Sequence record: NC_048178.1
Length of the DNA: 41,912 nt
Reading direction: 5' to 3' (one strand)
Source of the DNA: Escherichia phage Sortsne
This document shows, one piece after another, positions 2,594 to 17,252 of the stretch. The notes beneath the pieces are model-generated. The model worked only from the letters and a program-made list of their open reading frames with translations, had not been told where the DNA came from and ran no database searches. The translations under genes were made by a program, and so were the position numbers. How positions within the stretch are numbered: position 1 is the stretch's first letter; the number at the start of each line of letters is the position of its first letter.

Positions 2594-3156
2594 TGTTTAT
2601 CAAGGTGAAGCGTTTTAACATGGAGTGCCTGCTGAATATCCACAAGATCGAGGCGGTGGTCCCGATGGACGACGGCAAGACGACCAGCGTTAAGGCTGAG
2701 GGCCATAGCTTCGACTGGGCGATCCCGTTCGACCAGGCTCAAGACGTCTTGATCGACTGCGCGGCCCAGGTGACGGCCCCGATCGCCTCCCGCGTGATGG
2801 CGCTGGACAATACGCTGGCACGTACCGCCCGGAGCGTGGAGGACCTGCTGGAGAAGCTGGACAGCGCCATGAATACGCCGATCATTAACTGCGACGGCAT
2901 GACGCCGGAGGAGGCGGAGCGATTCAAGTCCACCATGCGAGACACGCGCGCCACGCTGGACAGCATCCAGCCCCGGCTCGTTAGCCAGCCAGACGGGACG
3001 AAGGCGCGCCTAATGAGAGCGGAGGCTCTGCTGGCGGAGGTCCATCACGCATGGAACAACGACGCGGACGCGGCCAGCGCGATCGGCCACTACCTCGGAT
3101 CGAATATCGAAAACTTTTTGTACCCAGGCGAAAAAAAGGCTTGTGATAAAGAATAA
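2593..3156 (+). CDS. hypothetical protein
   Basis: 187-aa ORF; ATG overlaps upstream stop (TAATG), implying translational coupling. Confidence 0.5.
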   Translation: MFIKVKRFNMECLLNIHKIEAVVPMDDGKTTSVKAEGHSFDWAIPFDQAQDVLIDCAAQVTAPIASRVMALDNTLARTARSVEDLLEKLDSAMNTPIINCDGMTPEEAERFKSTMRDTRATLDSIQPRLVSQPDGTKARLMRAEALLAEVHHAWNNDADAASAIGHYLGSNIENFLYPGEKKACDKE

Positions 3157-3169
3157 ATCACGATAGTAT
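3141..3169 (+). promoter_or_regulatory. sigma70-like promoter TTGTGA-N17-TAGTAT with ATCACGA motif in spacer
   Basis: Read directly from sequence; followed by a 5' hairpin and gene 3217. Confidence 0.4.
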
Positions 3170-3178
3170 TAAGTTGTC

Positions 3179-3197
3179 GCCGGGGAATGGCCCCGGC
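3179..3197 (+). promoter_or_regulatory. 5'-UTR hairpin GCCGGGG-AAUGG-CCCCGGC (boxB-like candidate)
   Basis: Perfect 7-bp stem, pentaloop AAUGG, about 10 nt after predicted transcription start. Confidence 0.4.
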
Positions 3198-3216
3198 AAT
3201 AACGGAGATTGAGACG

Positions 3217-3456
3217 ATGGCAAAATTAACAGTACGCATCACAAACGGTCAGGAACGCGGTCGCCAGTGGAATCACCACTTTAAAGCCACATCGGGCCAC
3301 GCCACTGTTAAGCGTTACCTGGACTGGAAAGCGGCGGAACTCACAGGCGAGGAGCCGGAAGTCGAGGACTACGTGGACGAGTTCACCACACGCGGCGAAG
3401 TCGAAGCACGTCGCATTATCCATCGTAACAACCTGCGCGCCGCTGAATACTACTAA
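3217..3456 (+). CDS. hypothetical protein
   Basis: Start refined to ATG at 3217 (GGAG RBS 9 nt upstream); the track start at 3187 lies inside a perfect 5' hairpin. Confidence 0.5.
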   Translation: MAKLTVRITNGQERGRQWNHHFKATSGHATVKRYLDWKAAELTGEEPEVEDYVDEFTTRGEVEARRIIHRNNLRAAEYY

Positions 3457-3498: not shown

Positions 3499-3876
3499 AT
3501 GTCAAAAATGATCGTTGTTACCCGCTGGCCTACTGCCGCCGACGCACAGCAAGACGCGGAGCGCGTGGCCTCACTCATTCGCGCCCATTCCTGCGTCCAG
3601 TCCATGCCGATCCGCGTTAACACATACGAGCGCGAGGAGAAGCTGGGCGGCGGGTTCGGCTACGTGCTTACATGCGGCCCGGTGTCGATAGTCTGCCGGA
3701 GCCTTACACGTTACACGGCCTGCTATTCCCTGCCGGAAGGTCCACGCGGAAACCATCGGGACGAGTTCGAGGCGGTCACGGCTGAGGCGGCGATCGATGA
3801 AATGCGGGAATTTCTGGAAGCGCGGATCGAACATGCCCGGCTCGCGCTGGCCGTACTGGCCGGGCCGGACTCATGA
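3499..3876 (+). CDS. hypothetical protein
   Basis: 125-aa ORF preceded by conserved hairpin plus CCCAGGAGTCGAAG leader. Confidence 0.5.
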   Translation: MSKMIVVTRWPTAADAQQDAERVASLIRAHSCVQSMPIRVNTYEREEKLGGGFGYVLTCGPVSIVCRSLTRYTACYSLPEGPRGNHRDEFEAVTAEAAIDEMREFLEARIEHARLALAVLAGPDS

Positions 3877-4094
3877 TCCCGGCGAAGGTGCAACGGAAAG
3901 CGAAGGCGATCCTCCACCTGTACGCCCAGAAGGAGGTCCAGCCCCGCAAGCTGGCCGGAGGTCTGGGCCTCGCGCTGGAGGTCGGTTATCGCTGGCGTCT
4001 CCTGTCGCGTGACAAGGGCGCAACGTGGGATCTGGTATCACACGAGCGCTACAACAAACTAACCAGGGGCAAAAAGCCCCGCACAATGAGGTAA
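3873..4094 (+). CDS. hypothetical basic protein
   Basis: 73-aa ORF, ATGA start/stop overlap with upstream gene; Lys/Arg-rich. Confidence 0.4.
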   Translation: MIPAKVQRKAKAILHLYAQKEVQPRKLAGGLGLALEVGYRWRLLSRDKGATWDLVSHERYNKLTRGKKPRTMR

Positions 4095-4420: not shown

Positions 4421-4441
4421 AAGGGGCCTTTGCGGCCCCTT
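4421..4441 (+). terminator. GC hairpin (weak terminator/attenuator) upstream of holin
   Basis: AAGGGGCC-TTTGC-GGCCCCTT hairpin, short T tract. Confidence 0.3.
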
Positions 4442-4494
4442 GATTCTACGTGCTACCCTTTAGCGGTTATTTAATTGTTAAAAGGGATCAGGCA

Positions 4495-4851
4495 ATGTCC
4501 GAACATACGACGCTCTGGCAATTGTTCCAGTTGTACCGGGTGGAGTTGGGTTATTCATTCATCGCGGCGTCTGTCGCGGTATTCCGTCACTGGCAATTAC
4601 GCCACCCATTCCGCGATATCGTAAGCGGCGGGGCCATCTGCGCGGCGGTGGCGTTCGGGATGAATAACATCCTGTCATTCTTTGGGGTCGATCATGGTAC
4701 GTGGGGTTATCTGGCGTCCGTGTTCCTGGGTTACGTGGGCGTGGAGACGGCGCTCGACTGGGCCAGCGAAAAGATCCCTTTCCTGAAAAAAATCCGCGCC
4801 ACCCCGGCGCATACTTCACCAGCGGAGGATCAGACCGATGGCAAAATTTAA
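4495..4851 (+). CDS. putative holin
   Basis: 118-aa protein with hydrophobic segments and charged C-terminus, immediately upstream of and overlapping the endolysin gene; position in lysis cassette. Confidence 0.5.
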   Translation: MSEHTTLWQLFQLYRVELGYSFIAASVAVFRHWQLRHPFRDIVSGGAICAAVAFGMNNILSFFGVDHGTWGYLASVFLGYVGVETALDWASEKIPFLKKIRATPAHTSPAEDQTDGKI

Positions 4852-5311
4852 GCTAAACGAACAGCGCCGCGCCTTTCTGGACGCGATCGCCTACTGCGAG
4901 GGGACCGACAACGGACGCCAGCAAACGCGAAACCACGGTTACGACGTGGTGGTGGGCGGCTCCCTGTTCTCCGACTATTCGAAGCATCCCGATCGCCTGG
5001 TGCGCCTGCGTCCGGGCCTCTCCTCCACGGCTGCTGGCCGCTACCAGTTGTTAAGCCGTTATTACGACGTGTACAAAAAACAGCTTGGCCTCCCGGACTT
5101 CGGGCCGGACAGCCAGGACCAGATCGCGCTCCAGCAAATCAGCGAGCGTAAAGCGCTGGAGGATATCGACGCGGGCCGGATCGAGTCTGCCGTGGCGAAG
5201 TGTAACAAGACGTGGGCCAGCCTGCCCGGCTCCCCTTACGGTCAGCATACCTACAGCATGGCCGTATTTCTGGAGCAATTCCGCAAGGCGGGCGGGAAGG
5301 TGGCCGCATGA
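4838..5311 (+). CDS. endolysin, lambda R-type lytic transglycosylase
   Basis: 157 aa; strong resemblance to lambda R as recalled (FLDAIAYCEGTDNGRQQTRNHGYDVVVGG...AGRYQLLSRYYD...WASLPG). Confidence 0.9.
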   Translation: MAKFKLNEQRRAFLDAIAYCEGTDNGRQQTRNHGYDVVVGGSLFSDYSKHPDRLVRLRPGLSSTAAGRYQLLSRYYDVYKKQLGLPDFGPDSQDQIALQQISERKALEDIDAGRIESAVAKCNKTWASLPGSPYGQHTYSMAVFLEQFRKAGGKVAA

Positions 5312-5829
5312 TCGCCGCCCTCCGGCTGTTCCTCTCGACTCACTGGCGCTTAGTGCTGCTGGCCGTTGTCGTGCTGCTGGCGCTGGGGGGATCTTTCTGG
5401 GCGGGCCACGAGTGGAGCGATCGCGCGTGGTCCAAACGCTGGGCGCAACGGGACGCGAACGACTCCTCCCAGGAAGCGAACGCACAAGCCGCCGCCCGTA
5501 TCATTGAACAGGGGCGAAACATCGCCCGCGAGGAGTCCGTAAAATATGCGAACGAACAGGCCGCAAAAGCTCGCGCCGCTGCTGCTGCTTCTGGTGCTGC
5601 CCTTGATCGGTTGCTCGAACGAGCCAGCAAGGAAGCCGCCCGACGCGAAGCCGCTGATCAGACCGCTGCCCTCGGAAGGGCGTCAGGGGAACAGACCGCC
5701 CGAATGTATTCCGACTTGCTCCGACGGACTGGAGAAGCTGCTCGACGGTATGCTGATATAGCGGAGGGGGCGATCACCGCTGGGGAGGTATGCGAAAGGA
5801 ATTACGACGCCGTGGAGCGTCAGCAATGA
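5308..5829 (+). CDS. i-spanin (Rz-like)
   Basis: N-terminal TM anchor then Ala/Arg/Glu-rich coiled-coil-like periplasmic region; directly after endolysin; contains embedded lipoprotein ORF. Confidence 0.7.
   Translation: MIAALRLFLSTHWRLVLLAVVVLLALGGSFWAGHEWSDRAWSKRWAQRDANDSSQEANAQAAARIIEQGRNIAREESVKYANEQAAKARAAAAASGAALDRLLERASKEAARREAADQTAALGRASGEQTARMYSDLLRRTGEAARRYADIAEGAITAGEVCERNYDAVERQQ
5546..5761 (+). CDS. o-spanin (Rz1-like), embedded in Rz in alternate frame
   Basis: 71-aa ORF wholly inside Rz; signal peptide with lipobox LIGC; proline-rich mature part. Confidence 0.65.
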   Translation: MRTNRPQKLAPLLLLLVLPLIGCSNEPARKPPDAKPLIRPLPSEGRQGNRPPECIPTCSDGLEKLLDGMLI

Positions 5830-5858
5830 GAAAGGGGCCTTGCGGCCCCTTTTTTTAT
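5829..5858. terminator. bidirectional intrinsic terminator between lysis cassette and Ig-like gene
   Basis: AAAGGGGCC-TTGC-GGCCCCTTT stem-loop followed by T7, A-rich on the other side; convergent gene ends. Confidence 0.8.
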
Positions 5859-6625
5859 GCTGCCGGATTAACCGTAACAGTACAGTGAATGGATTCGACC
5901 GTTTTCGGGGGGTTGGTGTTGCTGCTGGTGGCTACGCACCAGTATTCCCCGGCATCACCAGCGACCGGGGACGCTTTGGTGTAGGTCGCGGAGGTCGCCC
6001 CGGAGATCGGCGCGCCGTCCTTGTACCACTGGTAAGAGTACGGAGCGAGGCCCGTCTGAGGGTTCGCGGCCACTACCAGGGAGGCGGAGGTCCCGACGGT
6101 CCACGTCGCGCTCGCGGACAGGTTGGTGGACAGCGAGATCGCGACCTTCGTCCTCACGCGCTGAGAGTCCAGCGTCTGCCCGATCGAGTCGGTGATGGTC
6201 ACGAAGTAGTCCGCGTTATGGGTCGCTGCGGTGTAGTTCGAGATCGTCAGCGTGTCAGTCGTTGCGCCGCTGTAGCCGTTGGCGTTGGTGACGTTGCTCG
6301 TCTGCCCGCCGGAGATTTTCTTCCACTGGTAGGAGTAAGGAGGAACGCCATCAGCGGCCACCACTTTAAAGTCCTTACTGGTGCTAACCGGGACGTAAGT
6401 CGCGCCAGCGTCGCCAGCGGCCACGCCGGGGAGATCGGTCGTGAACTTGAGCGGCTTCGCCAGGTTCGGGTCGTACTCCATGTAAAACATACCAGTGGGA
6501 TCAAGCCCGGTCGGCTCGTCAGCCAGCCAGATCACGTCCTGCTGAGGGACTTCCGACGGGTCGGAGATCCGGGTGACTTTCCAGCCCAGGAGATCCGGGC
6601 GGTAGTAGCGATGCCAATAACTCAT
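5855..6625 (-). CDS. Ig-like domain protein (two tandem Ig-like repeats)
   Basis: Start refined to ATG at 6625 (GAGGA RBS); repeated PPYSYQWKK / APYSYQWYKDG motifs typical of bacterial Ig-like domains. Confidence 0.55.
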   Translation of the reverse strand: MSYWHRYYRPDLLGWKVTRISDPSEVPQQDVIWLADEPTGLDPTGMFYMEYDPNLAKPLKFTTDLPGVAAGDAGATYVPVSTSKDFKVVAADGVPPYSYQWKKISGGQTSNVTNANGYSGATTDTLTISNYTAATHNADYFVTITDSIGQTLDSQRVRTKVAISLSTNLSASATWTVGTSASLVVAANPQTGLAPYSYQWYKDGAPISGATSATYTKASPVAGDAGEYWCVATSSNTNPPKTVESIHCTVTVNPAA

Positions 6626-6699
6626 AATTTTGTCCTCATGGTGCGCCGTGTTATAGTTCCCCGGCATTGTAGATCATCTTTGAGCCGTAAACGAAAGGA

Positions 6700-17221: not shown

Positions 17222-17252
17222 AGAAAGGGGCCAATTAAGGCCCCTTTTTTTA
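17222..17252. terminator. bidirectional intrinsic terminator between recombination operon and tailspike
   Basis: AAAGGGGCC-AATTAA-GGCCCCTTT plus T-run; convergent gene ends. Confidence 0.8.

Follow-up and report, generated by a model that had tools for sequence, protein, structure and literature searches.

We propose, with a probability of roughly 93%, that a two-component spanin, which would act at the last step in the phage lysis of Gram-negative cells, has its subunits encoded by two overlapping genes of Escherichia phage Sortsne (NC_048178.1), one at 5308..5829 and the other, nested within it, at 5546..5761. Positions are those of the whole stretch of DNA analyzed, 41,912 nucleotides long and hereafter called the window. 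By sequence, the pair belongs to the RzpQ/RzoQ family (PF10721, DUF2514, together with PF28595; N15 gp55 type) and not to the lambda Rz/Rz1 families. The original prediction, made from the letters of the DNA, had placed an Rz1-type lipoprotein gene embedded in Rz at 5308-5829, with a lipobox LIGC in the +1 frame of Rz, and had assigned this embedded two-component spanin to a lysis cassette. The re-analysis agrees on each of these points: the inner gene is found at 5546..5761, its lipobox lies at 5603-5614 in a frame offset by 238 nucleotides, and a holin gene (4495..4851) and an endolysin gene (4838..5311), both recognized by PHROG matches, stand immediately upstream. The features of the outer gene, which encodes the putative inner-membrane subunit (i-spanin), are listed below.

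5308..5829, plus strand: i-spanin (Rz equivalent) of the DUF2514/RzpQ family, 173 amino acids; ATG at 5308, TGA at 5827-5829
5350..5406, plus strand: codons of the transmembrane anchor of the i-spanin, approximately residues 15-33 (LVLLAVVVLLALGGSFWAG), placed by Kyte-Doolittle hydropathy
5791..5793, plus strand: Cys162, the single predicted periplasmic cysteine of the i-spanin, near the C-terminus and outside the overlap with the inner gene, picked out by conservation

The outer gene starts on top of the endolysin stop codon (ATGA junction, 5308-5311). In a Pfam scan its product matched PF10721 with 107.7 bits, well above the gathering cutoff of 26 (expect value E=7.7e-31; profile positions 4-160 of 161), and it also matched phrog_312, 'Rz-like spanin' (E=1.2e-43). 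Homologues were found by tblastn in 35 phage records, N15 gp55 among these; a protein at 99% identity comes from a metagenome-assembled NCBI entry named 'MAG: Bacteriophage sp.'. A scan of NCBIfam returned no useful match for either subunit. The 19-residue Kyte-Doolittle maximum of 2.36 falls at residue 15 (residues 15-33), the LGGS..AG core of this anchor is invariant among homologues, and the same measure found no second hydrophobic segment over the whole 173 amino acids. AlphaFold2 modelled the protein as one straight, continuous helix spanning residues 2-172 (mean predicted local distance difference test score, pLDDT, 82.9; predicted template modelling score, pTM, 0.33). A single N-terminal transmembrane domain followed by a largely alpha-helical remainder is the hallmark of the i-spanins of two-component systems (Kongari et al. 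2018, PMC6139136), and from this layout we infer an N-in/C-out orientation. By our own estimate, the periplasmic part, with about 140 helical residues and a length of about 20 nm, would be long enough to cross most of the periplasm. Cys162 is invariant in 13 homologues and is also carried by N15, the prophage Qin, phiNP and Skarpretter.

The inner gene is predicted to encode the partner subunit (o-spanin), a lipoprotein of the outer membrane, and has the following features.

5546..5761, plus strand: o-spanin (Rz1 equivalent), lipoprotein precursor of the RzoQ family, 71 amino acids; ATG at 5546, TAG at 5759-5761
5530..5535, plus strand: Shine-Dalgarno sequence GAGGAG of the o-spanin, 10 nucleotides before the ATG and the same in nine of nine close relatives
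5603..5614, plus strand: lipobox L20-I21-G22-C23 of the o-spanin, read from the sequence; Cys23 is TGC at 5612-5614
5705..5719, plus strand: CxxxC motif of the mature o-spanin; Cys54 is TGT at 5705-5707 and Cys58 is TGC at 5717-5719

This gene lies wholly inside the i-spanin gene, in the +1 frame relative to it (start offset 238 nucleotides), where it occupies 0.46-0.87 of the outer gene's length and ends 68 nucleotides short of the outer stop codon. Its protein sequence, MRTNRPQKLAPLLLLLVLPLIGCSNEPARKPPDAKPLIRPLPSEGRQGNRPPECIPTCSDGLEKLLDGMLI, opens with a basic n-region, MRTNRPQK (R2, R5 and K8; net charge +3), followed by a hydrophobic, uncharged h-region of 11 residues, LAPLLLLLVLP, and the lipobox. 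Cys23 is predicted to be the acylated first residue of a mature protein of 49 residues, 18% of which are proline. The residues at +2 and +3 after the lipobox cysteine are Ser-Asn, so that the protein is without an Asp inner-membrane retention signal. A signal for signal peptidase II, a lipobox cysteine and the lack of Asp at +2 are together the features by which o-spanins are recognized (PMC6139136), and all three are predicted here. The o-spanin matched phrog_11621, 'Rz-like spanin' (E=2.1e-12), and four database proteins that are 86-97% identical to it carry the precomputed Pfam assignment PF28595, shown as 'RzoQ'. A local Pfam scan of the 71-residue protein found no match, and the RzoQ reference of Escherichia coli K-12 likewise had none there; because PF28595 is missing from the local copy of Pfam, this empty result is not evidence of absence.

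The cysteines of the two proteins fit the same picture. Cys54 and Cys58 of the o-spanin are kept in at least 90% of the aligned sequences and in all family members, lambda Rz1 alone being without them. Conserved cysteines, predicted to be periplasmic, are therefore present in both subunits (i-spanin Cys162; o-spanin Cys54 and Cys58), as is usual for two-component spanins: SpaninDB records periplasmic cysteine(s) for intermolecular disulfides in 507 of its 528 systems (PMC6139136).

An open frame alone proves nothing at this location, since the GC-rich region is crowded with meaningless open reading frames (ORFs) in alternative frames; 60 ORFs of at least 25 amino acids were counted within 4 kb. 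The inner ORF might thus be open by chance, owing to the GC-rich DNA, and have its L-I-G-C by coincidence, the outer gene alone being real, and it would fit this explanation that the embedded gene is annotated in none of the 14 related GenBank/RefSeq phage records. We put it against a null model in which synonymous codons of the outer gene were shuffled, so that its protein and its codon usage stayed the same, and against a detector of lipoprotein-like ORFs, which asked for a start codon and a basic n-region, then a hydrophobic core free of charges, and a lipobox with 20 or more mature residues. An embedded lipoprotein-like ORF, in either alternative frame, arose in 1 of 5000 such trials; applied to the whole window in all six frames, the detector returned the o-spanin ORF and no other.

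Conservation also argues against a chance ORF. The outer gene has exactly the same length in nine close relatives (IME_EC2, vB-Eco-KMB41, sortregn, Lumpael, ST231, sortsyn, Kc237, sortkaff and IME279), and all nine keep the inner reading frame open, with its start, its stop and Cys23 unchanged. Five distantly related phages (N15, Skarpretter, phiNP, ST846-OXA48phi9.1 and Fraca), with i-spanins 36-51% identical to that of the window, carry a homologous lipoprotein ORF in the +1 frame. The acylated cysteine is residue 23 in every family member tested, compared with residue 20 in lambda Rz1, the out-group. Moreover, the profile and pairwise matches to annotated o-spanins are significant. Third codon positions of the i-spanin gene vary less in the overlap than outside it (mean pairwise difference 0.181 versus 0.244; one-sided Mann-Whitney P=0.036), as would follow from selection on a second frame, and nucleotide identity is higher in the overlap (for example 0.90-0.95 versus 0.83-0.84 outside, in the closest relatives). 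Given the conservation and the null models, we regard a chance ORF as effectively refuted and give it only a minute probability.

We next consider to which family the pair belongs. The original prediction had taken lambda Rz/Rz1 as the term of comparison. This parallel stands for the architecture and the gene order but not for homology, in that the i-spanin matches PF10721 above its gathering score and the o-spanin is homologous to RzoQ. If the two proteins were true orthologues within the lambda Rz and Rz1 protein families, the identical gene order, the same +1 embedded arrangement and the similar sizes would all be accounted for; the adjoining endolysin is moreover 61% identical to lambda R, and the holin falls in the lambda S family. 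However, neither window spanin matched PF03245 (Phage_lysis) or PF06085 at E<=1, although the positive controls were matched strongly (lambda Rz against PF03245, E=2.6e-54; lambda Rz1 against PF06085, E=2.9e-20). The PHROG families differ as well (312 and 11621 in the window versus 13 and 3198 for lambda Rz and Rz1). In BLASTP comparisons with lambda Rz and Rz1 the hydrophobic membrane and signal segments alone aligned, with E values of 0.002 and 0.039 that come from single-pair searches and were judged insignificant. Lastly, the cysteines are laid out differently: the window has one in the i-spanin and two in the o-spanin (CxxxC), whereas lambda has C99 and C152 in Rz and C29 in Rz1 (PMC6139136). 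Membership in the lambda families is accordingly very unlikely. The names 'Rz' and 'Rz1' hold for the window proteins by function and architecture, that is, by analogy alone.

The two proteins, members of the RzpQ/RzoQ family, may work as follows. The i-spanin would sit in the inner membrane by its one N-terminal transmembrane helix, the sequence features of which are observed directly, and would extend an alpha-helical rod of about 140 residues into the periplasm. For the o-spanin, translation would begin in the +1 frame at an ATG with a Shine-Dalgarno sequence of its own, and export, acylation of Cys23 and cleavage by signal peptidase II would follow, as its signal features suggest; with Ser at +2, the Lol system would be expected to sort the o-spanin to the outer membrane's inner leaflet. 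The C-terminal parts of both spanins may then bind each other to form a disulfide-stabilised bridge across the periplasm and through the peptidoglycan, by analogy with lambda Rz/Rz1 and T4 PseT.3/PseT.2 (PMC6139136). Once the peptidoglycan has been destroyed by the lambda-R-like transglycosylase, for which the holin opens the way, the spanin complexes would be free to collapse; the inner membrane would thereby fuse with the outer one, and virions would be released.

Several observations weigh against this reading. The mechanism is carried over from lambda and T4 proteins that are not homologous to those of the window. The spanin function of DUF2514/RzoQ members is putative, and literature searches for 'DUF2514' and 'rzoQ' turned up incidental or irrelevant papers alone. 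We take none of the rule-based tests to show the absence of a lipoprotein signal, the outcome that would have told against the original prediction. The core lipobox and a G+LPPv2-type pattern were matched by the o-spanin and by all relatives' sequences tested, but a strict PS00013-type regular expression (PROSITE) failed on the window o-spanin because of a Pro at -4, while it passed in 7 of the 9 relatives' sequences tested. We judged this failure to be a limitation of the pattern, since the core lipobox and the spacing are both intact and Cys23 is conserved throughout the family. With 10 nucleotides, the spacer between the Shine-Dalgarno sequence and the o-spanin ATG is among the longer ones usually seen, and the conservation of GAGGAG is not independent evidence because the same bases code for the invariant R74-E75-E76 of the i-spanin. 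The dual-coding test described above is modestly significant at P=0.036. As to structure, the AlphaFold2 model of the o-spanin is of low confidence (pLDDT 56) and mostly coil, its short C-terminal helix being a weak hint at best, and the i-spanin helix resolves neither a coiled-coil hairpin nor a linker; because the model is a single straight helix, a hairpin of two coiled coils like that of lambda Rz cannot be judged from it.

A further alternative accepts the inner lipoprotein as real but assigns it another task, namely that of a moron-type outer-membrane lipoprotein comparable to lambda Bor or T5 Llp, with a role, for instance, in serum resistance or in the exclusion of superinfecting phages. 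Phage lipoproteins with such roles exist, and the spanin role of the RzpQ/RzoQ family rests on analogy. Against this, the lipoprotein ORF always has one and the same relative position inside a DUF2514 gene, whatever the endolysin type and however different the genomes are otherwise, and it sits in a late lysis operon without a promoter of its own. It is small and proline-rich and has conserved cysteines, like the catalogued o-spanins (PMC6139136). The window also holds no other o-spanin candidate, so that the i-spanin would otherwise be left without a partner. We therefore deem a moron-type lipoprotein extremely improbable. A unimolecular spanin of the T1 gp11 type was considered separately and rejected: the lipoprotein is without a C-terminal hydrophobic segment, the membrane-anchored protein is without a lipobox, and the two are separate products.

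Within the two-component spanin reading, the cysteines leave room for a tentative suggestion that RzpQ/RzoQ-type spanins use a covalent architecture unlike that of lambda, although we hold this to be rather doubtful. In one variant, the invariant CxxxC of the o-spanin would first form an intramolecular disulfide, which would isomerise to an intermolecular one upon complex formation, as proposed for T4 PseT.2. In the other, a heterotypic bond would join the o-spanin CxxxC to the single invariant C-terminal cysteine of the i-spanin. Should either variant prove true, the RzpQ/RzoQ family would be a distinct mechanistic sub-type of spanin.

The spanin pair closes a lysis cassette, the remaining elements of which are given here.

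4495..4851, plus strand: holin of the lambda S type (class I), first gene of the cassette, 118 amino acids; PF05106 and phrog_126
4838..5311, plus strand: endolysin, a lytic transglycosylase of the lambda R type, 157 amino acids; phrog_90, E=1.5e-50
5828..5856, no strand assigned: intrinsic terminator hairpin GGGGCC-TTGC-GGCCCC with A/T runs at its flanks, directly after the i-spanin stop codon

The holin matched PF05106 (Phage_holin_3_1) with E=5.4e-9 and 36.8 bits (cutoff 23.8) and phrog_126 (holin/anti-holin) with E=3.2e-17, and relatives annotate a holin at the same position. An in-frame GTG at 4450, a possible antiholin start, was rejected: it has no Shine-Dalgarno sequence, it follows directly on a hairpin, and the start annotated in relatives is the ATG that corresponds to 4495. 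The endolysin gene overlaps the holin gene by 14 nucleotides, and the similarity of its product to lambda R has an E value of 3e-72. With a 19-residue Kyte-Doolittle maximum of 0.25, the endolysin has no hydrophobic segment and would hence be soluble and holin-dependent. The terminator hairpin folds with -19.5 kcal/mol on the plus strand (z=-3.9) and -17.4 kcal/mol on the minus strand (z=-3.3), and a hairpin followed by a T-run stands after the i-spanin stop in nine of nine close relatives, with a loop that varies. A consensus terminator scan did not list this hairpin, though it is clear by direct folding. Holin, endolysin, spanin pair and a hairpin with a T-run thus make up a complete holin–endolysin–spanin cassette, and location beside holin and endolysin genes is itself characteristic of two-component spanins (PMC6139136). 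The cassette (4495..5829) is mosaic, combining a lambda-type holin and endolysin with Qin/N15-type spanins; in N15 and Qin, the same spanin family is paired with different lysozymes and holins.

Some observations concern the surroundings of the cassette. The terminator is bidirectional and shared with a convergent gene on the minus strand (5855..6667, 270 amino acids), whose product has immunoglobulin-like domains (Ig_3, E=1.2e-8); its equivalents in relatives are named variously as a Hoc-like head decoration, a 'major tail subunit' or a tail protein. The motif GGGGCC-N(3-6)-GGCCCC occurs three times in the window (4423..4439, 5834..5849 and 17227..17244), where 0.02 copies are expected. The first copy forms a hairpin just before the holin gene, the stem of which is almost that of the terminator following Rz, but which has no T-run (-16.8 kcal/mol, z=-4.0); this hairpin (4423-4439) could be the terminator of the upstream operon, an RNA-stability element or a processing element. 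Further upstream, an ORF on the plus strand (3873..4094, 73 amino acids) encodes a ParE-like toxin domain (PF24732, E=7.3e-19), and it overlaps by 4 nucleotides another plus-strand ORF (3499..3876, 125 amino acids) for which no Pfam match was found. These two ORFs (3499..4094), which directly precede the region of the lysis cassette, could make up a toxin–antitoxin pair; the equivalent gene in vB-Eco-KMB41 is annotated as a 'putative toxin antitoxin system protein'.

Both the family and the architecture of the spanin pair are already catalogued, as is its presumed mechanism; this is known biology, and the main value of the present analysis is for annotation quality: the o-spanin is missing from the records of the relatives and the i-spanin is misnamed in several of them. 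In related records the i-spanin appears under the wrong names 'tail assembly-like protein' and 'putative murein endopeptidase', as an 'endopeptidase Rz' or as a hypothetical protein, and in phage Eeyore the spanin region is split into three short coding sequences. The reverse of the usual omission was seen in two Logan metagenome contigs (in one of them at 2763..3284), where an automatic gene caller had kept the 71-residue o-spanin (PF28595, RzoQ) and dropped the enclosing i-spanin. Once the pair is recognized, this phage has a full holin–endolysin–spanin cassette, the mosaic make-up of which becomes apparent. No new biological question is raised.

Lastly, we compared the pair with known systems. 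The closest are the Murrayvirus/Sortsnevirus phages (IME_EC2, Lumpael, sortsyn, sortregn, vB-Eco-KMB41, ST231, IME279 and sortkaff) and Kosakonia phage Kc237, in which the lysis cassette is collinear with that of the window at 76-84% nucleotide identity. Their i-spanins are 61-86% and their o-spanins 62-92% identical to those of the window, with the same lengths and the same gene-relative coordinates. In length the window is similar to the related genomes (roughly 38-42.5 kb), and it looks like a nearly complete genome from this group. Over the first 25 kb of the window, identity with these phages is about 79-81% across 36-81% of the sequence, among the twelve records listed, and on this basis the window phage is probably a species distinct from the relatives compared.

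The experimentally characterised prototype, lambda Rz/Rz1, shares with the window the S-R-Rz order and the nesting of Rz1 in the +1 frame. Both systems combine a type II membrane i-spanin having a helical periplasmic domain with a small, proline-rich outer-membrane lipoprotein as o-spanin (predicted in our case), both have periplasmic cysteines, and both presumably fuse the inner to the outer membrane after the peptidoglycan has been degraded. The systems differ in that no sequence homology is detectable between their periplasmic domains and in the cysteine layout. Lambda Rz1 is described as unstructured (PMC6139136), whereas the window o-spanin has a short C-terminal helix predicted with low confidence.

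A nearer parallel is phage N15. SpaninDB places its gp55 among the embedded i-spanins, as a singleton family, with an 84-residue o-spanin in the +1 frame at 0.42-0.89 of its length (Kongari et al. 2018, PMC6139136). In that survey, roughly 70% of the embedded o-spanins have their start at 0.4-0.5 and their end at 0.9-1.0 of the length of the i-spanin (PMC6139136); the corresponding values of the window o-spanin are 0.46 and 0.87. N15 gp55 is 46% identical to the window i-spanin by tblastn, and the two o-spanins align with Cys23, LPLPSE and CxPTC conserved; they differ in length (84 residues in N15, 71 in the window) and in the lipobox (LVSC versus LIGC). The holin and the lysozyme of the N15 lysis cassette differ from those of the window, and its o-spanin is not annotated in GenBank.

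The counterpart from which the family takes its name is found in Qin, a cryptic prophage of Escherichia coli K-12. RzpQ of Qin (b1553, DUF2514) is 42% identical to the window i-spanin (E=3e-34), and RzoQ (b4689, a putative lipoprotein, PF28595) is 39% identical over 70 residues to the window o-spanin (BLASTP, E=8e-12); the Pfam and PHROG families are the same for both pairs. The NC_000913 annotation has rzoQ as a gene for a lipoprotein inside rzpQ, and this nesting, directly after a lysozyme gene, is the same as in the window. Compared with Qin, the window o-spanin lacks 13 residues at the C-terminus (71 versus 84 amino acids) and the i-spanin has 8 more at the N-terminus; Qin has a T4-lysozyme-like endolysin and an essQ-type holin, whereas the window has homologues of lambda R and S. 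The two pairs share the lipobox cysteine at residue 23, the LPLPSE and CxPTC motifs and the C-terminal cysteine of the i-spanin.

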